A DNA stretch of 64,000 nt from Novakomyces olei (taxonomy: Eukaryota), in contig JADEYG010000009.1 of assembly GCA_016906335.1 (NCBI GenBank), forward strand, positions 1,240,001 through 1,304,000. The letters are read 5' to 3'. Below the pieces are notes generated by a model. It did not search any database. It saw only the letters and a program-made list of their open reading frames with translations, and was not told where the DNA came from. Positions 29,703 to 63,073 of the stretch are shown piece by piece. The translations under genes and the position numbers were made by a program. The number at the start of each line of letters is the position of its first letter. Within the stretch, counting starts at the first letter, position 1.

Positions 29703-32700
29703 TTACTGTCGAAACGAAGATGGCGAGGGCCGCGGTAGTTGCATCCCCATAGTATTATTGTACTGAGTATGAGGGGAAGTCCTCTGTGGCCCCGCTGTCC
29801 GAAATTGCGAGGCTAAATGCTCTTGCAGTGTGGGCAGAGTCAATGAGTCCACTTTTGATCTCGGAGTCGACTGGGACGGAGGCTGTTGACCATTGTTTAA
29901 TCCAGAATTCTTAAAGCCTTCATGATCCTGTTGAAGGCCAGAGTTGCTGGGACCGAGTCCACTTTGCCCGCTGGTATTGCCATTGTTGTTGCCATTAGTC
30001 GCACTTACTCTTTGCATGGACTCCAGTGAAAGCTGTTGGGGATTATGCTGATGTATTCCCAGTTCAGATTCCCTATAACGTGATGAAGGCGAAGACCTCT
30101 GTTCCATTTGCGATTCGTCAATAACAACGGACTGTTTGAATGGGTTTGATTTTGCTTGCTGAGCTTGAGTTTCGTACTCTGATTGCTGCTGACTCTGGAG
30201 CTTTTTACTCTCCCCTGGGCTTTGCTGGTCCATAGAAGCAAAGGGATAAAAAGCCTGCTGCTGGGGTGGAGCAGAAGGAGGAGGTACAGACGTAGACATT
30301 CCCACACTATACTTGCCCACAATCTTCTTCAGAGCCAGGCCGAGCAGAGACCAAGAAAAGACTTTAACGTCCTTTTCTATATTCCTCGGCTTTGGAGCAG
30401 GAAAGCTCATAATCAAACGGAAAAAGTCCAAGTTTTCCTGACTGACTTTGCTGATTGTCAAGGGGCGAAAGCCCTCAAGGTTTCTTCTTATCCGATTCTT
30501 TTCCTCGATGGAAAAGCGCATGCCAATAAGCGATTCGAGCAGATAAATACAGTCAACACTAGTAACAAAACAGGCATGTCTTGCATCCCAGAAAATACAT
30601 GAAATAACAATAGAATTAGGCACTCTTTTCTCCGGGGCTACTGGCCTAAAAGTACAGTTTATCGTATTATCGTCCTGCTGACGCCAAAACTGTACGAGCC
30701 GCCTTCGCGACGCCCATTCATCGGCTGTCCAATTATGGCACATTTCATCAAGCTCACCGATTATTTTTAGTTGAGCTCGCATGCCTCTTGCAACTGCACC
30801 TTTTTGTACAGAGCCGAGGGTCGAAGTTCGAACCAGTGGAGGATTCGAGGCTCCTGGAGGCGGTAAAGGCGCAAGACGTTCATTCAATTCCTCAGAAAAA
30901 GCAGCATTGTTGTTGTTGTTGCTGTTATTGTTATTATTGGTATTATTGTTGTTGTTGTTAGTAATAACATTATTATTAATATTCATAGGTGGGTACCCGT
31001 GTACCATTTCGCCCAGTCGGATAGACTTTTCTAGTTCATGACGCGCCTGTGGACTCGATCGCACAGGGTAGGGCTCATAGTGACCTGGTTTACTTGGCTG
31101 CTTTGTTACTGTCGGGGAGCTTTTATAGCCCTGCGCGGTGTCCAGCTGAGGCTGGTGAGGAACTGACCTGGGCGAAAGCATGCCTGTCCCTGCGGTAGTA
31201 GGGGCTTGTCCAGATGATGCGATGGCAAGACCTTGCTGTGTTTCGTCGTGGTTTGCTCGGGTATCAAAGGGGGCACCATTACTGGCAGCAGGAGTAATAC
31301 TAGTACTGTTCGCTTCAGCAGCGTTAGTACTGTTACCAGCAGTCGAAGGTGCAGCGCTGCTAATACTACTAAACCCACCATACATGACATTGGGCTTAGC
31401 ACTGGCTGTTGTATAAAACGACCCAGAAGTGGGCGTATAAGAAACCGACCCGGGTCTCTGGTAATAGTACATCGACCCCGGGTACTCAAACAGGCTGCCA
31501 CTGCTTCCTGGCTTTATTTCCGTCGACGGCCGCTGAGTGGACGGCGGAGCAGTGCTGGACTGGGCAGACTGGGACTGCAGATAGTTCATGAAGGGCTGAG
31601 CTTGCATGACTGACGGAGGCGGCAGTGTAGCTACTGCTGGAGACTGCTGTCCCGCAGAGGGGAATTCGCTGCCAAACGATCTGGGCGATAGGAGGGACGT
31701 TGTGCTTGCTCGTTTTGTGAATAGATCGTTGGACAATAGTATACTGCTGCCACTCCGTTCCGTCCCAGGCCCACCAGGAGTATTGGACGTAGCCGAGGCA
31801 GGAGTCAGTGCTTTAATGGCATTATCATTGCCAGTGGTATTCGCACTCTGTGAGGAAGTGTCCCAGTACGTGAAATCGCAAATGGGTACAACCCCGACCT
31901 CAATACCCGTGGCTATATCCTCGGCAATAAGCCAGACGGCAATTGTTCCCCGTGTGCTACCGGGTGTAAGAGCAGACAAAGGCTGAGCTTCAGAGAGAGG
32001 CGGGATCGTCATAACAAGCGTGCTTGTAGGTCTTCCACTGTGCTGCGGAGGCTTTACTATAGTTGGGATGCATTTAAGGTCGCCAAATATCACTCGGTAT
32101 GCTCTAGGATCGTTTGATATATCGGAGATGTGGAGCGTAAAGGCGTATCCGGCCTGCCCGCTTATTGGACTCCATCCAAGGATATCGGGGAAGGGGACAC
32201 TCAGTGCGAGACTCGAAGGGCCATTGTCCGCGTGTATTGTGGAATGTGCTGTACCATCGCCTGTTGAATAGTTAGTATACCTTTGTGAATATTCATTTAA
32301 ATAAAGACTTGGAATAGCAATTGAATTTGAAAAAGATAATAAAAAAGCCAAATAACAAGGGGGGAAAGAAAGAAACTGTCGTAATTAAAAGCCATGTTTG
32401 CTCACTGATAAAAACGTTTGTAATCAGAAACGCACCTGAAGGTTGTAATAAAGCGCCTGGAACCGTATTATGAGCAGGGAAAAGCCCAGGGTTCGATATC
32501 AGAGGTAGATTATTAGTGCTCCCCCCTAAAGCGAATGAAGAACTTTCCGAAGACCGTGATGGAAAATAGCTGCCATGGTGAAATGCAGCCTCCAGTCCAG
32601 GTTGAACAGTGCTCACTGGATTTGCAGCGGATGCTGGTCGATATAGTGGAGGAATCACGGACTTTGGAGACGTTGGATTATCTTGATATTGAACGGGAGG

Positions 32701-32808
32701 GAAAGATGTAGCCCGTGACATATTGTATAAATGACCGCCTTGCTGACCAATTCCCTGATTGTGTAAGTGAGGAGCAATTCGGCTGCTTCCTGCGAGTGTA
32801 TCACTCAT
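29703..32808 (-). CDS. medA: Medusa (MedA/Acon-3) developmental transcriptional regulator; intron ~32261-32435
   Basis: Conserved domain RRLVQFWR...ISCIFW...FVTSVDCIYLLE...EEKNRIRRNLEGFRPLT...PKPRNIEKDVKVF...ALKKIVGKYS. Confidence 0.92.
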
Positions 32809-35800
32809 TTCGATTTAGAATTTATTGAACTCTTTGTCAATAAGATGCAAAATTGTTGTAGACGATAGATCAGAAGGCCTGAACTATGACCAAAGCAGTT
32901 TCAAAATCCTGTTGAAGGCTGACAGTACTCAAACAGGGGCCAACTGCCTATTTAATTGAAATCTGCTCTGATCTGATCAAGACTGTTTTGTCTTTTCCCG
33001 CTCTGCGTTTTGGTCTCCCTTGTTTCCTGCTAGTTTTATTGCTTTCTTTATGTCTCTTGTGCAAGCAAAATATACCACTCGGCAGTAAAGACTATCGAAA
33101 TATCTCAACCTTTGTACATACAGAAGCTGCAGATGAGAGATAAGAAAGAACCATGGGCGCAGAAACTGCGTTAGCTTGCTCACAAACGAATAAAAATAGT
33201 AATGGAGAAAGCAATATGCTATAGATAGCTTCACTGTGGGTAACTCTCCAATGCAAGCCGGCAACAGAGTCCCAAGCGATAGGGTGTTTTCTGAAGGCAC
33301 AGGTCTTTGTTTCCAGCACAAGCGTCTAAAACGTTCTGGTGACTGCTAGTGTTAGAGCCCTAAGACGATGATGCAAATGAGATTAGACTCAAACTTCTGC
33401 AAGAGCCGCTTCCGATAATCAACGGGCCTTTTGAGTCGTCAAGTTTGACACACAGATCAGTTGATTAATATAACCTTTTTGAAAAAGATTATAGATATGG
33501 AATTAGGTCAGAGATGTATAGTGAAAACAATCTGCTGTATAGTCTTGATGATTGGATGACTATCAAGCAAATACGTTATTGTATTGTCAAAAGTCTCAAT
33601 ACAAAGGCTGCTTTTGTGAACGTTCACCTCGATTTCTATTCCCGAGACCAATTTTAAGGTCAATCAAAGAGTATTTCCCGAAAACGAAATTAGTCTTGAC
33701 TGACACACAAGTTTTATTTATCGAGAGAGCGGCGAGGCGGAGCTGTGAACAAGAGTTTGTCTCCAAAAGGTGAATAAACCCCCGAAACAAAACTGACAAA
33801 GAGACTATTATTGTAAAGCGAGATGTGCGCTGGTTTCGCTAAGTAGTTGGATATCTTTGAATCAGTAGGCGAAGCTAGACAGACAGATATTCTTGCGTGA
33901 GACGGTGAGCGCAGCGACGACAAACTTGAGTTTCAGGCCCTTATTTAGCTTAAATCGAAGACCGCAAGCTCTTGAGTGAAAAATGAACGCTAAAAGCAGA
34001 CGGCTACTTTAACGTTTTGATCGATGCAGGAACATGCATAAAGCGGGTCACACCGCAAAGATTCAGAGAGAGAAAAAAACAAAAGAGTCGCAAGGCTAAT
34101 GTCGAACAAGGGAATCAGTCTTTTAAGTAAATGCAGAAAGATACCCAACTTGGTCTCAGTGTAACCGAATTCCTATTCAAAAGTTTCTACAAGCACAATA
34201 TGCAAAACTTTGAACTGAGAGATTAGAGAGGCGCGGAAAAATAAGTCTCCGGTGTCAATATTAAGCGTGTTGGCAACGTATTGACTAATTCTGAGCCACT
34301 GTGCCTCCGCAATTTTTGTACAACAATTAAAGAATAAACCACGCGCAATTCTTAAAGCGCAAAAGTTAGACACGCGCTATACTTCAAAGATTTTCTCCCT
34401 AGACCAGTTCCGGTTATGTGTGAAAACGACTTTAAGTCTGAACCATGTGATGCCGAAGACGCGCGCGCCAGCGCAGAAAGAGGAAATGAAAAACGTACAA
34501 TAAAGATGAGAAATATGATATTAAAGACAAGAAACAAGAATAGAAAGTAACAAGATAAATTCCAAATTGATACAAGAATCAAAACAATGTCCAAATACCG
34601 CCGTGATCCACAACAGGACTGAAAAAAATCCCGAATGTCGCACTTGTATTGAACAGCTGGCACAAATTTGATTTAAGCGCGTACAAATCAGTAGAAATGT
34701 AACAAATATTGTATCCACAAATTAAGAGGCAACTGAGCCGGCGTGGGGAAGCAGGCAGATGTGTAACGGGAAGCTCCGATCTGCAGTACTTGCACTTGAT
34801 TTGCTCCTGAAAGTTTGCGCTAAAAGCTTTTTCTTTCAATGCTCTAGTGTAACTCTGCTAGACTTTCGCGCAAGTATGCACAAACCGCAAACGAACTCAC
34901 GCTTTTACGGAGCACGAAAAGTTAGGAACGCGGCGAGTGCGATATGCCCACACTAAAAGTTGGTTTGACCTAATTTAGCCAATCCTTGGCTTAGATCAAG
35001 AGCGAGACAGTCGTGGAGTTTGGGAAATAATAATGAGTCCGCCCAAAAAAAATAAAAAGGGCCGAAAGGAAATAAAACTGTAGTAAAAAACAAAGCGTCT
35101 GCGCAATTGCAGACAGCTGCCAAACCTTTAGAAGGGACTCTAGCAGGGTAAATTGGCACAAAGCCTGACGCGTATTGGCTGAATGTAATGCCGCTTGAGC
35201 GTGGTGTTCCAAAAGTAGCGCTGTCTTAAAGCCTAAAACGATAAATAAGATTTAGAAGTCCGGGCTCTGATCTTTATAAATTAGGAAATACGACTATATA
35301 ACAGTGAATGATATTTATGAAGGGGGAGGATAGTAGTAGTATGATTAGCAAAAAATGGAAAAGGGTATGAAAATCACAAATTAGTACTATACACGCCCAA
35401 AAAAAATGGTAATAAATCACGGTAGCGGCTACTGCCGCTGCATGACGGCCAAGGTCGGCTGGAGAAAATATACCCAAGCTCATTAGAATTAGGCTATATA
35501 GGACTCCGGAATCTATGGACAATTTGCATCTCTAACCCTCAATGCCTTTCACAACAATCTTACTTCTACTATGTCATATTATTTACGTTCCGGTCTCTAA
35601 ATCTTTGAAAAAGGTTTTATTACGTGTCTACCAAATTTTTTCGGCATATTTGTCTAAATGCCAATTCTTCACATCATACAATAAAAAGCTTATGCAGTAT
35701 GATTTTGATTTCAAACATCAAAGCACCGACAGGTTGGCACGAGCCAGTTCCTGCTTCACCAGGCGTTTGTCTAAACTGTAATTATTTGCATGCCACACAA

Positions 35801-36302
35801 TCTCTACGTGTATGCACAATACGTATGCTACTGGCCTAATGCGGCGTCCGTTACTATGTGCACACCTATACTCAGACATCCGTTTTGGGATTGTGCCAGC
35901 CATCGTATTTCATCCCAAAACGGAAAGTGTGCATTATACTTGCCGAAGCTGACTTAAATTTAGTTTCAGATGTCTCGTTTACGTTGCCCTGTTGAGCTTG
36001 TTTGCTTTGTTGCACAAAGCAAGTGGAACTCAGAACAAACTCCGTGCCTTGATACTCTTTATCGTTTGCTCATTTGACTCTTGCAGCCATACGTATGGTG
36101 CTTTTGACAAGGGATCAGAACCGGGTTTTAAGCCGCCAGAAACGTGAGTTTCGAACCACTCGTGCCGCGAGCTAACAGTTCACATATCAGAATTGGCCAA
36201 TCCCGGGGCTCAATTAATTAATCTGTTATTTCTCTGGCAAGAGCGGATAATTCGTGACACATTGGCAATAGGCCACCACTGAAAGCCTAAATTATGCCCA
36301 CC

Positions 36303-37055
36303 TTATTCCTCCATTTCAGCTTCATCTGCAACCTCATCCTCATCGTCCGCCCACCATTCAGGATTCCCTAAGCCCTCCTGATCACAGGCACCCTAAAACT
36401 TTAGCACCCAAAAAGTAAGAATGATAACAATTAAGATACCATAACAAGGTACGGTGAGACTGCATCCTCTACACGTGATCCTGGTCCGTTTTTAGGGTTC
36501 GATTCTCGGTAAGTCTCAGACTCGACACGGAAACGAAGTCCAATTCCTGCTTCTAACCATAGATCCCCAATTTCGCTGTGCCAAACATAAGCAGCCTCTT
36601 CTGGCCGCCACTCGCAATTTTCAAATAACGCGTGTCGCGGAATATGTATATCGTCGAAAAAAGACATTGAAACTTTGGCGATAATTAATAAACAATAATA
36701 TCCTTTTTCCTTACCTTTTATAGCCGTCTCGCTGCAAGAAGATATTGTGCCCTCGAGAATCTCCCCCCGAAAAGGTCTGAAAACAACGATCCTAAACTCC
36801 GCTAAGATAAACATTAGTTGTTTTGCCAAAGTGCAACTTTGGCTTACTTGTTACTGCCGCGGCTCCAGTGCCATGCTTTACTATTCCGTCGCTGACTTCG
36901 ACGAGATCAAAAACACAGACACAAAGTCCAACATTAGGCAGAACTTTATTAGCGTATTTGGAGTGAAGCACTTGAATGAGCGCGTCGCGCGTGCTTTCAC
37001 GAAACGACTCTGGTTCTAATTGTAGTACGTCGCTCAGTCGCGCAAGTACAAACAT
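36303..37055 (-). CDS. RPC25: RNA polymerase III subunit C25, 4 exons
   Basis: KYANKVLPNVGLCVCVFD, FRIVVFRPFRGEILEG, FFDDIHIP, GLGNPEWW. Confidence 0.93.
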
Positions 37056-37621
37056 TACTCGCTCGACACGTAGAGAAGCCAATTTTTTCCAATATAAATC
37101 ATCAAGTCTGCGCGTTAAACTAGGCTAACGCGGGCTTGAAACGAATGTTTTTTAATTATAAATCGCATATCCTAGAATTCAAAAAATTTAATTCAATTCC
37201 AGATTAGGGTGCTAATTTCTGTAGATCACAAGAAAACGATAAACCATTCTGGGTTATACTTAGATTAGGTAAAACCAGTTTGTGTTTCGATAAATGATGA
37301 TTTGCGAATAGCAAGCTGGTTTGAGATTAATAGTTTAAAGACTAATCTAGTTGGCCGCTATTGTCACGAGCTGCAACCTTCATTATTAGTCGGACGAGCC
37401 TGTCTCACATGTTCACTATTGGCTTGCGCTAAATCGAATCTGTGCTAGCCAAAGCAGATATGATTCAAATATCCTGCTTAGTCCGTTCAAGTAGTCTAGA
37501 CTTAATAAGTCCCCATAAGCTCTAGTTATAGTTTTAAACTTGTGACCAGATGCATATTAGATAAAGCAATGTAAAAGTATGATATGATTAATGCTAGAGA
37601 GGCAGCAATTTGAGCGCGTCA

Positions 37622-40269: not shown

Positions 40270-43230
40270 TCACTCGTCAACATTTCGATAAACTAATCTG
40301 CCACCGGCCAATCGACGTTCGCGCTTCGCCTCGTACGCAGCTCGGACAACTCGTCTTATGCGATCACGGCCTTCCTTATAATTTGCTGCCCCTAAATCCA
40401 TGACTTTATCAATTTGCTCTGGAGAATACTCAAAGTTCCAAGTGCTCAACCACGGAGTCTTGTCCGGTTCGACCCCAGGGACGGCTTTATTCGGAATAAG
40501 TGGGAGATAAACAAGCGCAATCCCGTCGTCTCTTTTCATTCGCGTCCAATTCTCATCAACAATACTGGCCTTGGGAGGCTCACCGCTGTCGTCACGTTTA
40601 CGCGTGGAACCTATCCAAATTGTACAAGGTCCTAAAGCGTACTCGGTGACCTTTGTCCGGGTATTATTGCTGTCTAATTTCTCTTTTTCATTTCCCCTTT
40701 CTCCAATTTTATCCCCTTTTTTGTATTCATTTTGATTCAAATTTCCCCCAGAATCAGGACTCGTTTGCTCGATAGATCCATTGTCTGTTGCCGATTTCAT
40801 TTTCTCGGTTTCTTCTTTGTCTGCACTAGTCGCAGCGTCATGTAACTCGGCTCTCAAGCGGCTGGACTCACCGGAATTCCATCCTGCACCGGAGGGCCAA
40901 GCACGAATCCCGCGCTGTTTTGCGTAACCATCCGCCCTTTCAAAGTACGGTGTTTCCGTAATGTCAGCACTGCAGTCAATCGTAATAATGATGTCAGGAT
41001 CGCGTCTTAAAAGTGGGTAAAATGGGAGATTGTTACTCATGCCAGCGTCCATTACATCCAAGTAATCTGCAGTTTTCAGCGATTCCGGACAGGTGTCTGG
41101 TAATTTTTCGCCTAAATTTTTAGCAAAATTGGGGATCGAAGACGGAGTCAATGGATGGACGTTCAACATATCTGCATCTTTGGACATTATCAACGAATCA
41201 ATTTGCTTTATAATGCCAAATTGCGGTAATGCAGGCCGGATTTCTCTGTAATAATGACTCAGAGTTGCACACATGGCAGAACCAAAGATCCCCAGAAGAA
41301 TAGGGAGCCTTATTTCCGGCGCATAGGGAGTTTTGCTCTCTCCATCATCAAATTTACGGCCCATTGACCACGTGGGAATAGCGACACCCATATCCTCAGA
41401 CCCAAGCTCAAACGGTGTCAGCTCGAGCCAAGTAAAATACGACGATTTCCGGTCTTCTTCCTCGATTTTTTGCATTTTTATTTGCTCTTCTGGAACATTA
41501 ATTGCTACGAGATGGCCTTCTTCGTCCGCATCTGTCTTTGCATCTGTGGTACTGAGTTTTTGTGCTTGTCTCTCTTTCAAACTACGTAATTTACGATCAC
41601 GAAATTCTGCGAGATCAATAAATGTTTCGTTTCGCGGTTCTGGAATCACATGATGCACCATTGTGTATATTGGAAGCGGAACACGGCCAGATTTAATCGC
41701 CTCTGCTTGCGAAGAAATCTTGAGAAAATTGTAATCGAGGTGAGAAAGGTCTTTGGGTATGAGCAGACGGCCCGCCAGCATCGTTCCGTAAAGATCAACG
41801 AGTCCAATTTCGCTGGTTCCGGCTTGCAATTTTTCCAATACTCCAGTCAGCAGATATTTGTTTGTAGGTGGTTCCGAAAGCTGTTCAAATAGGGCGGGCG
41901 CATAAGCAATATGCACTCCCAGTCGATCTTTGAGATGGTCTACAAGTTTCGACCAATTTTCCTGGCAATTAGAATAGGTCTGAGAGGAATGGCCATATTA
42001 AAAGAAAAAAAATTCAATAACACTAATAAATAACAAAATAGATGTATAAATATATAGATAGACTAGGGACTGATGCGAGGTGCATAAGAAGGTAGTTGAT
42101 ATTGCTGCATGCGAATACGAGGTGTGAAAGCGCAATGGGTTTGAAAGAGAAAGGTTAGATATGGATAGAAGGGTACTGGATTGAGTCGACAATCAAACAG
42201 TGAATGCTTTTTGGCAAATCCAATTTTAATAATAAACATATAATAAATAAATACGTCCAGCAAGACAACAATGGACATTAAACAATTCAAAGTATTCCCT
42301 TGATACCCAAGAGGCAAAACCATGAATGACGAATAAAACGGATCAAGAACTGCAGTAAAAGAGCCAGTTTCATACCTCACTGAGCGAATTGTACAATGCC
42401 AAAGCCCAGCAGCTGCCGGATACTCCAGCAATATAAGAGGCGACATCGTACAAGCCATCTTGCTCGAGCGCTTGCAAATAAGCAACAGATCCTACGAGTG
42501 CCCGAAGGCCGCCGCCGCTTGTAGCAATGCCTACTAGTGAGCAAAAAAAACCCCACGTTATTAGAGCAAAGGCAGATTTATAAAAGTATATTTTACAACT
42601 CACAAACATTGGGCACATCATCCTCGTGCACTTCATCGTCCGGCAGTCCAAGGTACTTTGCTAAGGCAGAGCGTGTAAAGTTCAGGCGGCGAGTAGAGAA
42701 CTCTTTCTCCTGCTCACAAATATCACTGGACAAGCGCACATGAGCGTCACGTGCAACTTCTGGATTCACGCTCGGATCCGTAGCATCGTTCCATATTTCA
42801 CTGGACAATGAGCCCGGCTTCATGGAAACTTCAGCGGCCACTTTTTCCAGCCATTCAGGCATCATTTGGGCGTTGTCAGGTAGCAATTGGCTCAAAGACG
42901 GAACTTGCGGAATTGCATCGGTTATTTGTCCAAGAGACCGTGTAAGCGCCTGTGTAAGAGCCTCTGGCCATTGCCACGGACCGCCAGAATCATCGCCCGA
43001 TTCTTGTGAAGAAGCCAATTTTTTAGCTTTATTCGCAGCGTCCGTACCGACATCGCTTTGGTTGCGCGTTAGCTTTAATCCATTTACTGTACACTTGGAC
43101 TGCCACATCTTTCCTACCATTGAATAGCAGATTTATTTATAAAAGCCCGTCCTGCGGTCAGACCAAAGCTCATAGCCGCAACTGCCATTGCTGTACTGCG
43201 GCGCCGGCCGCACATGTAAGCGCGCGCCAT
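40270..43230 (-). CDS. cPLA2/lysophospholipase catalytic-domain protein, 4 exons
   Basis: IATSGGGLRA, GVSGSCW nucleophile motif, WLELTPFE, MDAGMSNNLP catalytic Asp; first intron ~43059-43118. Confidence 0.9.
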
Positions 43231-43261
43231 TGGTATCAGACGGCAACGGCACTCGCTCGTC

Positions 43262-43469
<208 letters not shown>

Positions 43470-43609
43470 GTCCGGCACACGGCAATGTCTCTGTGACGTT
43501 GGTTATTGAGGGCGTCAGCAGACGTAATCCGTCCGGAACCAACCAACCAACCAATCGATTCATTTATTCATTTATTTAAATAAATCACCGCCTCGAAACC
43601 TGTCTTGTT

Positions 43610-49603: not shown

Positions 49604-51285
49604 TGCTCGAGGAACTAATGGATCTCAAGTCGGCGATGAACTGGAGAAACACATTTATTATAATAATTTCAATCGTTTCCAGGAATCTGTCCCACAAATC
49701 TTATTATACTATTTATTCACAACGTCTTTATTATGGATCTATTTTTTCGCGCACATTGATCAGGTATAAATTAAATATATCCATCTACGCTCAAAGTAAT
49801 ATTTATTGGTGAGAATATCCAATCGAGCTTTTTTGCTCAACAAGGAAAAACAGGAAAATGGATGGAATAGACTCGGTAATGAAAGCTCGTCAGGGGCTAG
49901 AAAAAAAACAACGTTTGCTTATGATTCATAAAGATCAGGTTGCTTGTTTTCCGAATCAAATAAGAGACTGAAAGTTCGCTCCTTGTATAGCAGATTATTG
50001 TGTAAAGAGTGCAGAGTGCAGAGCGCAAAGCGCAGAGCGCAACGTAAAAAACATTAGGCTCAAACACAAGCGAAAGCAGGATTAAAAAGAATGTGTATTC
50101 ATCAATAAATAAAGCAGATGAAGAAACAAATCAATATATTCCGAGACGTCACAACCATAGATTGTCAAATTTGATTCTAATATAGACACAGATAATACTG
50201 CAGCACTGCAAAACCAAGCAGACAACTTACACAATTATGGCGCCGCCTCTTCCATCAAAATCTAATGGTGCTCGGTCTCCCGTGCCTACCAGCTATTTAC
50301 CAGACTATGACTGCCTATGAGTCTTGTAGCAGCGCCAAAAAAGAAACTCTTTTACATTACAGATTATGGTATCTACGAGCAATTTGAAACGCTTTATTCT
50401 CTCCATAACCCGATATCGAAAGCTGCTTGCTTGCTCTGAACCGCATTGCCAGTATTTCGCGGTCTAGTGTCAACAAAGTATCATCGGCTATATACATGAA
50501 GCCATCACCTGACGATAAACGATATCTTTGATCATTAGCACGCCAACCAGACCACCAAACTTACCGCCATGACAAAACAGCATATTGAAACATAGGGCGA
50601 CAACCGTTCTCCGATACGGGCGCTCTTCCAAAACAGACCGAGCATTCTTGTCAAATAAGTCAAACGTGTTTCATATTTTTCAATGTTGCATTGACGGCAT
50701 ATCCGTGTCGCATATCCCCACTTACCCCTCCTTGTTGCGATCTAAGAGCGTTGGAAACTGGCCATGGACGTACGTCGAAGTACAAATTGTCAATAGAATG
50801 ACCAGTAGAAAGCTGTTGAAATGGAAAAGAGCCGACTGTTCTGTTAACCATGCTAAAAAATAATAAATAATAATCGTACCATTGCAATATTTTATGCAGT
50901 TTCCAGCGATCAACACGGACACCCCGCCACTCGAACGGTTCCAGTATCTGTAATCAAGCCATTAGCATTTGATTGAATTTATTGATAGACATACAAGTCG
51001 AAGGCTTTAATTGGTGGTTGGCAATGCCGCCTTTACTCACAGACTCGTAACGGACAGACTCGTAACGGATTTTGGCTCTAATCGTCGACCCAATTTCACA
51101 AACAACGAGCGCAATGCCAATTTCAAAGAATCGCGTATCCCGTACCAAAGATACTCGCGAAGAGTACTGTCATTATAATTGTGAAATTGTGATTCTTTTA
51201 CTGCGTTTTTTATACAATGCCGCCCTATATAATAGCCATCCATACATTATTCCATCGATCCTTTGAATATAACCGTCCGTACATA

Positions 51286-51420
51286 CATAATATTCTACAT
51301 TATCATATAATATTCCACATTATCATATAATATTCAACATTATCATAATATTCTACATTGCCATATATTAAGTATTCTGAACTATCATATAATATTCTAC
51401 ATTATCATACACTATTCTAT
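51286..51420 (+). repeat. 20-bp minisatellite (ATAATATTCTACATTATCAT), ~6 copies
   Basis: Direct observation in the acuM/WASP divergent intergenic region. Confidence 0.9.
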
Positions 51421-51794
51421 ATTTCAAATTACTCATACTACTCGCACGAGATTTACACCAATTCCGCACGCAGAGTATAAGACTTTGCTCGCGCAGACTG
51501 ACGGCTCAGCGCGGCGGGTTTGTGCTAATTGCGCGTTGGCCGCACAAACTGTCTAAGCTCGACTGAGCAATTGGATTTATTTTATTTCTATTTATTTAGT
51601 TAGTTTTTATTTGGTTTTTATTTATATTTTTGGGGATACGGTCTTGGATCGGATTGTGCGAGTAGATCAGTCGGCGTGTTCGCTGGTCAGCGATATCTAT
51701 ACCGGGAAATTGCCAGCGATACCTTGGGATTATTATAATTTTGCTCGGTGCTGGAAAACTAGGAAATTTGGATTTGCTCGAGGACTGCTTCGCA

Positions 51795-54262
51795 ATGCCG
51801 TCTTCCTTACTTCAGCCCTCTGACAAGGATAAAGTACGCCGTGTCATCCCGAAATCCTCGGCCAAAGTTATCGCCGCTGGAGTAGCCCGCTTGTATGTAG
51901 CGTACCCTGATCGGCATAAATGGACCTGGACTGGAATCAGCGGAGCTGTCGTTTTCATGCTGGACTTGGTGGCAAAGACGCACTGGCTAAAGATTGTGGA
52001 TATATACGTAATTTCTCTACAATTTACCTCTTTTTTACAGTCTACTGCAATCTAACCTGCCTCCTCTATACTTGTATACTAATATCTTGCAGGGTAACAA
52101 TGGAGTACTGTGGGATCAAGAGTTATACGACGGGTTTGAGTACAACCGGGACCGGACTTTTTTCCACTCCTTTGAAATTGATGTAAGACGGAACAAAATT
52201 AGATCAAGAACAAAATCAAATCGGGGACAAAATTTATCAAATAAATGAATGAATGAATGAAACAAGAGACTGACACTACAGAATTATATGGCTGGCCTTT
52301 CTTTTGTCGACGAGACGGAAGCTCAATCCTTCTACAAAAAAGTTAGTTCTGTGACCGGTGGTGGAGGTGGCGGGGGCAGCCATTTACTGGGAGGATCTTC
52401 TATGTTTCACTTTTCGTTCAAAGACCACTCGCCGGCCAAAAAGCTGCGATCAAAGGTTCACAAAGATCATATCGGCTCGCCTGCATCTAATTCGTTCGAG
52501 TAAGTGATCAAGAAATGGAAACATGAAAAAGGAAAAAAAACACTGGACAGATTTTACATGCGCACGCTATACACAAATGTATATATAAATATGTATACAT
52601 AAATGTATACATAAATGTATACATGTATAATATTCAAAAACAATAGACGACCCAACTAACCCACAGACACAAGCAAAGTGTCGTCTTTGACCCAGACAAA
52701 GGATTCGAGTCTCGTGGCATGGATCCCGGTATGAAAGGAGTTTACGAAAAGTTGGGAGCAATGGGGATTTCCGAGGACGATATTCGAGGCAACGAGGAAT
52801 TTATAAGGAGCTTTATAGCTCAGAATGGCGGTGAAGGAGCGTTTACCCCAGACTCTGGTCAATCAACTCCTCCGGCCGCATCTTTTACTTCATCATCTGC
52901 TGCCTCTGTCCCACCGCCTCTGCCCTCGTCGCTGGCAAACCAGGCGGCCAATCATGTCCCACGTGCTGCGCCCCCACCACCACCTTCTCAACCCCCACAA
53001 TTACAGCCACAAGAGCACTCTCAGCCACAGTCGCCTCGGCCAGGCAAGAAGAAACCGCCACCGCCCCCACCGCCACGCAAAGGCGCCCACTCTCATCATC
53101 ACGCTTCAAGCAGCATTTCGTCACTGCCATTCGCTCATGCAAACGGTACCGACTCGGAAAATGAAGGGTCAGAGCCGGAGCAAAAGGCACCGGCTCCCGG
53201 ACCAAAGTTCAGTGTACCCCCACCTTTTATGGGGACGAGAACGCTGCCTCGGCAGAACGGGACTGCTGCGCCAAAGCCTCCGCTGCCTTCTTCTTCGCGA
53301 CCCCCACCAGGCCATCCATTGCCTCCACGTCAAACAATGGTGGGTGGGGGAGGACCCCCACCCCCACCCCCACCACGTCAATTTGGTGGGGGTGCAGCTG
53401 CTGTACCCCCACCTCCTATCCCTGACAGATCGGTATACAATAAAGTGCCGCCGCTGCCAACGGGTGTTCGGCCATCGCTGCCCTCGCGGGTCGATCAGCG
53501 TAGCCCAACATCGCCTGTACCCCCACCCCCACCTCCTCCTCCTCCCGTTTCTGGTGGTGGTGGACCCCCACCCCCACCTCCTCCTCCTCCCGTTTCTGGT
53601 GGAGTACCCCCACCCCCACCTCCACCGCCAGTCAGTGGAGCACCCCCACCTCCACCTCCACCGTCTAATGGTGTACCACCCCCACCCCCACCTCCAGGCG
53701 GTGTACCCCCACCCCCACCTCCACCGGCGGGTGACGATGGTGTGGTTGGTCCACCGGAAGGTCATATTGACACGCCCTCACTTCCCGGCCGGGCTGATCT
53801 GATGGCCAGCATTAGGCAGGCGGGGGGAGTTCGCGTGCTCAAAAAGGTATGAGAGAAGAAAAGCTTAATCAAAAGACGGAAAAGACAAAAGCTTGAAAAT
53901 AAAGTAAAAATACAAAGACAAAGAAAAAATACAAAAATACAAAAATACAAAAATACAAAAATACAAAAATGCAAAAATAAAATAAAAAAAGAACAGAAAA
54001 ATCAAATTAATCAGTAATAAATTAATGTATTTAACTAACTTTTCTAGGGATCATCTGATACTCCTGCAAGTATATCAACACCCCCAGCACCACCAGCTTC
54101 AACCCCAGCAGCAACGGCTGGTGGAAACTTGGCAAATAGTCTGGCGCAGGCACTTAGTGCTCGCAAGTCTAAAGTTGCTATTAATGGTATAAATTTTGTT
54201 CTAATTTGTTTTTATTACTAACAGGATTAGACGATGAAGAAGAGGAAGACGAAGATTGGTGA
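51795..54262 (+). CDS. LAS17: WASP homolog (Las17/Wsp1), ~6 exons
   Basis: WH1 domain (VARLYVAYPD, LWDQELY, FFHSFE), polyproline, WH2 RADLMASIR..LKK, acidic end EEEDEDW. Confidence 0.95.
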
Positions 54263-61475: not shown

Positions 61476-63073
61476 TTAAACAGTCTCGTTCTTGACGTAC
61501 TTGCCTCCGGCATAAAAAGCGTCGCTGCCCAGCTCCTCTTCAATACGGAGCAGCTGGTTCAGTTTAGCCAGGCGCTCAGAGCGGCAGGGAGCACCCGTCT
61601 TGATCTGGCCGGCACCGATACCAACGACCAAATCCGCGATAAAGCTGTCCTCTGTCTCTCCAGAGCGGTGAGAGACCATAACCCCCCAACCATCGCTCTG
61701 AGCGAGGCGGGCAGCTTCCAGCGACTCACTAACTGTCCCTATCTGGTTCAGCTTGAGCAGAAGGCAGTTGCTCGCCTTCTTTTCAATGGCAGTAGCGATA
61801 CGTTTCGGGTTAGTTACAGTCAAATCATCCGCAACCAACTGGAACTTTGAATTGGCACGCAGATAAGACCAAGCGTCCCAATCATCCTGCTCAAACGGGT
61901 CCTCGATAGAGATGATCCCGTACTCGTCGGCAAGGTCCTTGTACAGCTGAGCCAGAGCTTTGGCCTCATAGTGCTGGGAGGGATCGGCATTGGCACTCTT
62001 AAAGTCCAGATCGTATTTGCCATCCTTGTAAAACTCAGAGGAGGCAGCGTCGAGGGCAATGTGCACTTTGCCCTTGTAGCCAGCCTTCTCGATAGCGTCA
62101 CGGATCAGGTCCAGAGCCTCACGAGGCGTCTCCACATCCGGAGCAACACCGCCTTCGTCTCCTACATTGCCGGCGCTAGTGCCATACTTTTTCTTGGCAA
62201 GAGATCGGAGAGTGGCGTACGTCTCTGCGCCCCAGCGCATTGCCTCAGAGAAAGAGGGAGCGGCAACGGGCATAATCATAAACTCCTGAAAGGCGAGTCG
62301 GCCACCGGCATGAGTCCCGCCATTGAGGACATTGAAGCTCGGCAGTGGGAGAACATAGGGTTTTTTCACTCCGTAGAGCTGGGCAATGTAGGCGTACAGG
62401 GGGAGACCTTTCTCCGCCGCCGCTGCCCGGGCCACACACATGGACACACCGAGAATGGCGTTGGCACCGAGTTTGGCCTTGTTGTCTGTGCCATCGAGCG
62501 CGTTGAGAAACTCGTCAATCTTGGCCTGCTCAGTGACGGGAATGCCTTCTTTAATCAGCGCTGGAGCAATGATGTCATTGACATTGGCCACGGCTTTAGT
62601 CACGCCTTTGCCGCCCCATTTAGAGTCCTTGTCACGCAGCTCTACCGCCTCCCATTGGCCCGTGCTTGCGCCAGAGGGCACTGCTGAGCGGTGCAGACCC
62701 GTCTCTGTGATCAAGTCGACCTCGACCGTCGGATTGCCGCTACTTGTTAGACGAATGAAACATTTAAAGTGCAACTCGGACAGACAGTAAAATATACTAG
62801 ACTGAAACTGTAATTGTAATGTTATTGTATTGTTATTGTATTGTAATTGAATTGTAATTGAATTGTAATTGAATTGTAATTGCAATTGTCACTGTCATTG
62901 TCATTGTTACTGTCATTGTCACTGTCACTGTCACTATAACTGTGACTGAAACTGTGACTGAAACTAGTGACAAATGCAACTCCAATTGGCTGATCAAACG
63001 GTCTTTTTTCAAACTGACTATCTACTTACCGAGAGTCGTAAATGGTTCGAGCGTGGATCTTTTGAATTGCCAT
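61476..63073 (-). CDS. ENO1: Enolase; intron 62740-63029
   Basis: [50 protein letters not shown]. Confidence 0.98.
62800..62972 (+). repeat. Compound simple repeats (AATTGTAATTG; CACTGT/CATTGT; ACTGTGACTGAA) in the enolase intron
   Basis: Direct observation. Confidence 0.85.

Follow-up and report, generated by a model that had tools for sequence, protein, structure and literature searches.

The window (the whole 64,000-nt stretch of DNA analysed here) carries a medA gene on its minus strand, with two exons and a long intergenic region that reaches up to RPC25 (Table 1). The gene was assigned to the MedA/DUF7082 family by PF23305 (E 5.5e-69; 231 bits against a cut-off of 27), and DUF7082 had one match in the genome. 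Homolog matches bore the names 'transcription factor medusa' and 'developmental regulator medusa'. In exon 2, the N-terminal domain showed 48% identity over 97 aa to protein P0001, and DUF7082 showed 71% to Saitoella.

Removal of the 175-nt coding intron gave a 976-aa frame from the ATG at 32808, which has a purine at -3. An in-frame TAA (32817–32815) lies 9 nt before this ATG, and an unspliced N-terminal extension of the protein is therefore blocked. We placed the probable start at 32808 on the continuity of the frame and on a strand-specific depletion of ATG that ends exactly there.

In a tree of the MedA domain the window sequence was unplaced save beside P0001. The saccharopine reductase of the same genome showed 79% to one protein and 64–70% to Pezizomycotina. 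No near named relative was found, and the organism probably represents an early-diverging ascomycete lineage.

Three minor features were seen elsewhere in the window. An inverted repeat at 35879–35924, with perfect 13-bp arms around a loop of 20 nt, falls in the interval from the stop codon of RPC25 to the promoter region of medA; it can be extended to a longer hairpin (z -2.1) and possibly belongs to the RPC25 3' UTR. A long trinucleotide repeat at 43114–43563 (minus strand), reading as about 60 tyrosines, is probably a microsatellite and not a gene. At 61476–62441 (minus strand) and upstream of it, a frame resembles enolase, judged by translation alone.

Table 1. Features of the medA locus in the window, and medA extensions in relatives (positions of the latter are those of the named contigs)
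Feature	Position	Strand	Basis or remark
RPC25 (RNA polymerase III subunit), upstream neighbour, bounds the intergenic region	36302..37170	-	PF08292, E 5.9e-17; ends by eye
TATA-like site 1, candidate core promoter	35495..35500	-	sequence match alone
TATA-like sites 2 and 3 (35300, 35278), alternative core promoter candidate	35273..35300	-	sequence match
AUG-depleted region, putative 5' leader of medA (pre-mRNA extent)	32809..35442	-	ATG statistics, 664-kb scan, change-point
uORF 1, 4 codons	34432..34446	-	weak context (C at -3); may be intronic
uORF 2, 11 codons, with nested uORF 3 (ATG 34035, 8 codons)	34004..34039	-	both contexts weak
74-codon frame from good-context CTG 33316, contains uAUG 33154	33095..33316	-	low-probability model
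uORF 4, 20 codons, with nested uORF 5 (ATG 33119, 4 codons)	33092..33154	-	weak contexts
medA exon 1, starts at purine-context AUG	32436..32808	-	frame; closest homolog gives no sequence support
medA coding intron, 175 nt, predicted	32261..32435	-	top-scoring splice pair of the region (16.9)
medA exon 2, conserved N-terminal domain and DUF7082	29703..32260	-	PF23305
Extensions in spliced contigs	L043:1224-1379, L039:890-1021, L080:989-1144, L093:988-1140, L037:403-552, L083:52-207
Extensions in genomic loci	L040, L045, L054, L055, L058, L065, L070, L075, L082, L084, L086, L089, L091, L095, L097, L100

Depletion of ATG upstream of medA

Between 32809 and 35440, the minus strand holds five ATGs, exactly where the earlier note had counted them (34446, 34039, 34035, 33154 and 33119). 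The plus strand, which the note had called rich in ATG, holds 44. The note had put the minus-strand expectation at about 40; base composition gave 42.7 and dinucleotide frequencies 32.1 (Poisson P 4e-9 for the minus-strand count). The shuffled null that it had proposed was run with 2000 dinucleotide shuffles, and gave a mean of 32.0 and a minimum of 18. The two long ATG-free runs it had described measured 997 and 881 nt from ATG to ATG, more than any other such gap in the window, whichever strand is read.

ATG was the most depleted of all 64 triplets in this region (O/E 0.16; next triplet 0.54), and near-cognate triplets showed no depletion. The density was 1.9 ATG/kb on the minus strand. Just upstream, at 35441–36300, the count was normal (17 against 16.6–20.9 expected). 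The depletion was even, with 0–2 ATGs in every 300-nt bin across the entire 2.6 kb. This suggested that nearly all of the 2.6 kb is under selection.

To allow for the after-the-fact picking of the medA upstream region, 664 kb of the genome was scanned, plus and minus strand alike. This comprised the window and a further 60 stretches of 10 kb, apart from one another (a segment crossing the end of a stretch can escape). The strongest ATG-poor segment in the scan was 32809–35440, with a score of 26.7. The non-coding runner-up (1,012 nt) scored 14.3, and the best segment overlapping a coding sequence scored 19.7.

Such a depletion might arise without any leader, by chance or composition, from a hidden antisense gene, or in a separate non-coding transcript. 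The region was indeed chosen after the fact, and the antisense of long coding frames can be ATG-poor, with scores up to the 19.7 seen in the scan. On the other hand, no shuffle came near the observed count, and long frames were absent from both strands. On the plus strand no frame exceeded 81 codons between 32809 and 36300, and the longest stop-free frames in the region (122 and 106 codons) both lie on the minus strand. No homology was found for the frames on either strand, and antisense stop codons were only mildly under expectation. Codon usage was uninformative, as even the conserved domain of medA scored negative. There was no Rfam match at E<=1, the tRNA scan was empty, and the region is single copy in the genome. 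The same feature was moreover found in orthologs that had not been chosen for it (see below). We consider the absence of a leader extremely unlikely.

The region was searched for other features as well. It contained no notable repeats, and its predicted folding showed no outstanding structure: 7 of the 56 folded segments had z<-2 (lowest -3.1), the mean z of the leader was -0.44, and its last 692 nt gave a z of -1.39.

Introns offered a further comparison. In a noisy set of 151 predicted introns of this genome, 202 ATGs were counted in 15,496 nt (13.0/kb; CAT 13.6/kb). Compared with 1.9/kb upstream of medA, this makes it unlikely that the leader is mostly intron.

The 5' boundary of the depletion was located by change-point analysis at 35442 as the best estimate (95% interval 35191–35489). 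A TATATA had been noted at about 35495; it is present at 35500–35495, and two further TATA-like sites, at 35300 and 35278, had been missed. The latter two are preceded by a pyrimidine-rich stretch and lie within the change-point interval. Two ATGs, at 35483 and 35443, lie between the first TATA and 35440. The estimated boundary fits a putative transcription start served by one or other of the sites at 35500, 35300 and 35278. Another TATA-like site was found inside the leader, at 33493.

We interpreted the region as the probable 5' leader of the medA pre-mRNA, which would start near 35.2–35.5 kb, be scanned to the AUG at 32808, and represent an old property of ascomycetes. This is the reading we hold likely from the sequence.

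Several start sites or sizeable leader introns could still make the main leader shorter, with the long form only a minor product. Besides the three TATA-like sites around the 5' boundary there is the one at 33493, leader introns exist in relatives, and the leader holds an acceptor-like site of good quality at 33346/33343 (scores 9.1–9.2) and an intron candidate at 34498–34215 (score 13.8). Against this stand the even depletion over the 2.6 kb and the scores of the intron candidates, which were barely above those of the antisense control. Only 34498–34215 exceeded the top of that control (12.3). We regard a shorter main leader as unlikely. This alternative is compatible with parts of the preferred reading, and the confidences given here to the alternatives are not mutually exclusive.

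Leaders of medA in other fungi

A metagenome scan yielded 80 medA loci. Of these, 22 were used, each with at least 1 kb upstream and about one per sequence group; 18 were genomic and 4 resembled spliced transcripts. The comparison with medA leaders of other fungi that the earlier note had proposed gave the same picture: 12 of the 18 genomic loci were ATG-poor in the 1.5 kb before the AUG (P<0.05). CAT in the same 1.5 kb was mostly near or over expectation. No significant depletion was seen in the other six (L045, L054, L065, L091, L097 and the Mortierella-like L028).

All four spliced contigs were depleted (P<=1e-4). Their leaders were at least 1,379, 1,021, 1,144 and 1,140 nt long, with 1, 3, 2 and 1 ATGs, respectively. 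These contigs appear to be transcripts, as the introns of the genomic loci are absent from them. Change-point analysis gave leader lengths of 0.7–3.5 kb in relatives, and the 2.6 kb of the window is near the upper end of this range and not unique. The medA leader ranked first among the ATG-poor non-coding segments of 12 of 15 long loci; L067, whose segment extends into the start of the coding sequence, was added to this count by eye.

The window leader showed no nucleotide similarity to the 22 other leaders at E<=0.05. With no detectable sequence in common, homology of the leaders was inferred from position alone.

The genomic locus L075 was compared with the spliced contigs L093 and L080, whose starts are no more than 5 nt apart and lie some 1,453 nt upstream. 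The ATG boundary predicted for L075, at 1,530 nt, was about 80 nt off the transcript end in this one genome/transcript pair. This single case suggests that the ATG boundary can serve to place a start site with an accuracy of about 100 nt when a fungal genome lacks annotation.

Two leader introns of L075 contain two of its three genomic leader ATGs. By the same token the mature leader of the window gene may be shorter than 2.6 kb. The earlier note had called the region an extremely long scanned 5' UTR. Scanning over a long leader is well supported, though indirectly, by the strand-specific purge, by introns that are not ATG-poor and by the similar orthologs; the full length may not hold for the mature form.

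The ATGs that remain in the leaders of relatives are of a particular kind. Across 24 loci, 45/157 of them had a purine at -3, against 630/1100 further upstream (p=2e-11). For other triplets in these leaders, the figure was 42–50%.

Near the 5' end of Eurotiomycete-like medA transcripts, a short nucleotide motif was seen, at about -1355 relative to the AUG in L043, -984 in L039, -1082 in L093, -1676 in L058, -1814 in L089 and -1396 in L075. It may be a conserved start-proximal element.

Residual upstream AUGs

The five ATGs left in the window leader open short uORFs, and the peptides predicted for them in the earlier note were confirmed (4, 11, 8, 20 and 4 codons). All five have a pyrimidine at -3. 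Taken alone, five weak contexts have a probability of about 0.06 by composition, which is no more than suggestive; a Kozak profile of the same genome, built from 74 ORFs, carried no signal at -3. Two of the five ATGs sit inside the preceding uORF (P=0.02 for clustering), leaving three uORF units. The nested ATG at 33119 belongs to a donor-like GTATGT at 33121.

Candidate introns could cover each of the uAUGs, but not preferentially, since 11–70% of leader positions scored equally. The best candidate, 34498–34215, covers the ATG of uORF 1, and cover as good was found at 11% of leader positions.

In relatives, the number of uAUGs and the length of uORFs varied among 24 loci, with 1–20 uAUGs per genomic leader. 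A uORF set conserved in number, order and length class across orthologs, as expected of a GCN4/cpc-1-type system, was not found in this sample, which contains no close relative of the window. On the other hand, five spliced contigs retain a weak uAUG at a fairly constant distance of 324–351 nt before the main AUG, and it opens a uORF of 3–18 codons. The uAUG at 33154 lies at a comparable distance (346 nt) ahead of the main AUG in the window. This may be a coincidence. None of the window uORF peptides had a match in a relative.

The earlier note had taken the five uORFs for a control circuit. In its strongest form, this would be a tuned reinitiation system like that of GCN4 or cpc-1, turning MedA on under stress or in development. 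Five very short uORFs within a purged leader would suit such a system, as would the weak uAUG at a similar distance in relatives. The weak context of all five, the nesting of two, the free variation of uORF number and length in relatives, the lack of a peptide match and the intronic position of two of the three leader ATGs in L075, which some of the window uAUGs may share, do not. The claim of a circuit was not borne out, and we regard the reinitiation system as quite improbable. The best reading is that the window uAUGs are tolerated, leaky leftovers, of which one may have been kept to damp output. If a functional uORF has been kept, the foremost candidate is the one at 33154, nearest the main start.

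Under the preferred reading of a long scanned leader, transcription would start at about 35.2–35.5 kb. Cap-dependent ribosomes would then scan 2–2.6 kb, from which any small leader introns must be subtracted, until they reach the AUG at 32808 with its good context. Selection would have removed AUGs able to divert scanning ribosomes. Weakness, nesting within another uORF or an intronic position would explain why the remaining ones are tolerated, and with leaky scanning their three short units would do no more than damp output. The long purged leader would be an old property of ascomycete medA and would probably keep MedA at a low, adjustable rate of translation. That the leader is regulated, beyond being merely long, is the least certain part: length and purge require just an upstream start site and purifying selection, so a regulatory role is not needed to explain them.

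A probable near-cognate extension in relatives, and known systems

In 23 of 24 loci of relatives, the annotated medA AUG had a pyrimidine at -3. In all 23 Pezizomycotina-like loci, the 40 codons before it were free of stops in frame, against 3/23 and 4/23 in the other two frames. The extension encodes a conserved peptide: mismatches by codon position were 87/60/154 in 11 pairs (third-position bias, p=7e-11), while an upstream control gave 29/34/23 in 3 pairs. It comprises about 50 codons, is split by an intron, and lies ahead of the weak-context annotated AUG.

In six spliced contigs, an in-frame CTG with a purine at -3 and G at +4 was found 44–52 codons upstream, without an intervening stop. 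In the genomic loci, many splice pairs were tried and only those with a good-context codon were considered, and the spacing from the donor was not imposed. A good-context near-cognate codon nevertheless lay exactly 10 codons before the intron donor in 16 of 20 loci (12 CTG, 2 GTG and 2 TTG). The exceptions were L030, L066 and L071, in which none was found, and L067, in which it lay at 13 codons. In L030 an ATG lies in frame at a distance of 41 codons upstream, and the annotated protein P0119 begins with Met at the place that corresponds to the near-cognate codon. From these observations, filamentous ascomycetes appear to start MedA, in part or for the most part, at a near-cognate codon.

A near-cognate extension was also sought for medA in the window and was rejected, given the in-frame TAA before the AUG, the absence of the relatives' CUG motif and a splice bypass at chance level only. 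The window medA appears to lack the extension.

One way around the TAA was weighed separately. The relatives' layout (CUG, about 50 codons, weak AUG, 13 codons, intron) is resembled in the window by the CTG at 33316, 54 codons, the weak ATG at 33154, 11 codons and the donor-like site. Both CUG 33316 and the weak AUG 33154 would then serve as starts, and a 367-nt intron (33121–32755) would join them to codon 19 of the frame that opens at 32808. The 74-codon frame joins medA only if this intron exists; the join would be in frame, and the acceptor scored 8.1. However, the donor was weak (3.6), and the intron score of 11.6 fell within the antisense control (up to 12.3). The part of the would-be intron upstream of 32808 has no ATG in 310 nt, against the intron average of 13/kb. 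The frame showed no peptide similarity to the relatives' extension and no homolog among 49 candidates, and the CUG motif is absent from the leader. We hold this layout to be very unlikely, and retain the AUG at 32808 as the probable start.

The two groups of results may be joined in one hypothesis, offered tentatively. Kilobase-long purged leaders of medA would have been kept across ascomycetes because output is set at scanning and start choice; in filamentous species the first start would be CUG, GUG or UUG and two forms would be made, and the window leader would be an extreme regulated form. If true, the first and possibly main start is the conserved near-cognate codon about 50 codons before the weak annotated AUG, and the ratio of the two N-terminal forms of MedA would follow how stringently start codons are selected. 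Most MedA entries in databases would be about 50 residues short, and recognition of the near-cognate start would put right the N-terminal sequence throughout a protein family.

Long leaders are familiar on fungal regulators. The 5' UTRs described for morphology regulators of Candida albicans include those of UME6 (3,041 nt), WOR1, CZF1 (2,071 nt) and EFG1 (about 1,150 nt); the same sources describe the WOR1 leader as lacking an AUG-initiated uORF and the 4-codon uORF of EFG1 as dispensable (PMC6034079, PMC4552353). The window medA resembles UME6, WOR1 and EFG1 in having a kilobase leader on a developmental regulator, and the scarcity of sense-strand AUGs up to the start codon that marks this type was found in it. 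The EFG1 and WOR1 cases agree with the window uORFs being mostly leftovers. Unlike the mapped and tested leaders of C. albicans, that of medA is deduced, showed no strong structure, and belongs to another gene family and lineage.

The closest parallel to the extension is cpc-1 of Pezizomycotina, described with a leader of >700 nt, two uORFs and a conserved near-cognate N-terminal extension (PMC5487733; commentary PMC5676045). The marks of such an extension (open frame, purifying selection, conserved near-cognate codon) were all found in Pezizomycotina-like medA loci. As in cpc-1, the medA of relatives has a conserved good-context CUG, GUG or UUG opening an in-frame extension under purifying selection, and the extension was found in Pezizomycotina-like loci only. 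The medA extension differs from that of cpc-1 in having about 50 codons and an intron within it; a single near-cognate codon is conserved, and the main AUG is weak (23/24). Moreover, medA has no conserved uORF1/uORF2 pair, and the window gene has its in-frame stop 9 nt before the AUG. Near-cognate starts and extensions in N. crassa were reportedly treated by Wei et al. in 2013.

Other conidiation regulators were also considered. The stuA gene has a long leader with uORFs. The brlA-beta transcript of Aspergillus nidulans is described as carrying a single defined uORF adjacent to the beta start site (10.1101/627414). Both genes encode conidiation regulators of a shared pathway, and medA, like brlA, would also be controlled at translation; nothing comparable to the single brlA uORF was seen for the window medA.

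The long undecoded transcript isoform (LUTI), described as having an extended leader rich in repressive uAUGs (PMC7049704), is not matched by the window leader, with its 1.9 uAUG/kb and O/E of 0.16. Long fungal leaders are often AUG-rich, for example in Cryptococcus and S. pombe (PMC7049704). A purge of this degree is thus not automatic.

In moulds, the timing of spore-bearing development depends on MedA, whose mode of action is described as still unclear (PMC3503810). A. fumigatus MedA (MedA/ACON-3) belongs, by domain, to the same family as the window gene. In the study of that protein, the ORF was cloned from the annotated AUG, and 1.5 kb upstream was used as the promoter (PMC3503810). In the Aspergillus-like loci that were compared, much of such a 1.5-kb 'promoter' would be leader and in-frame extension. 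A long leader common to distant ascomycetes suggests translational control, which promoter studies would miss or confound because the 1.5 kb can be mostly leader. The window alone is a modest result, a very long leader of a familiar kind.

The openly searchable literature, with older subscription papers and supplements outside its scope, held no description that we found of a medA leader or a non-AUG medA start. Fungal regulators with leaders of 1–3 kb are already known, as are near-cognate extensions, in cpc-1; both are apparently undescribed for medA in this literature.

Other ATG-poor stretches were seen in the same genome. The second-best non-coding segment (L007:557-1568, plus strand, equal to G000:C9:1040557-1041568) has 1,012 nt with 0 ATG on the plus strand and 4 CAT, and directly precedes a gene for a 1,578-aa RNB-domain protein (Dis3L2/Ssd1-like). 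ATG-poor stretches of 800–920 nt precede a bHLH transcription factor and an aquaporin (L120:3082-3880 and L129:5842-6761, both minus strand), and are probable long leaders. In the window, a gene-poor interval is ATG-poor at 51218–51794 (plus strand) and 51437–52382 (minus strand), and may hold the leaders of divergent genes.
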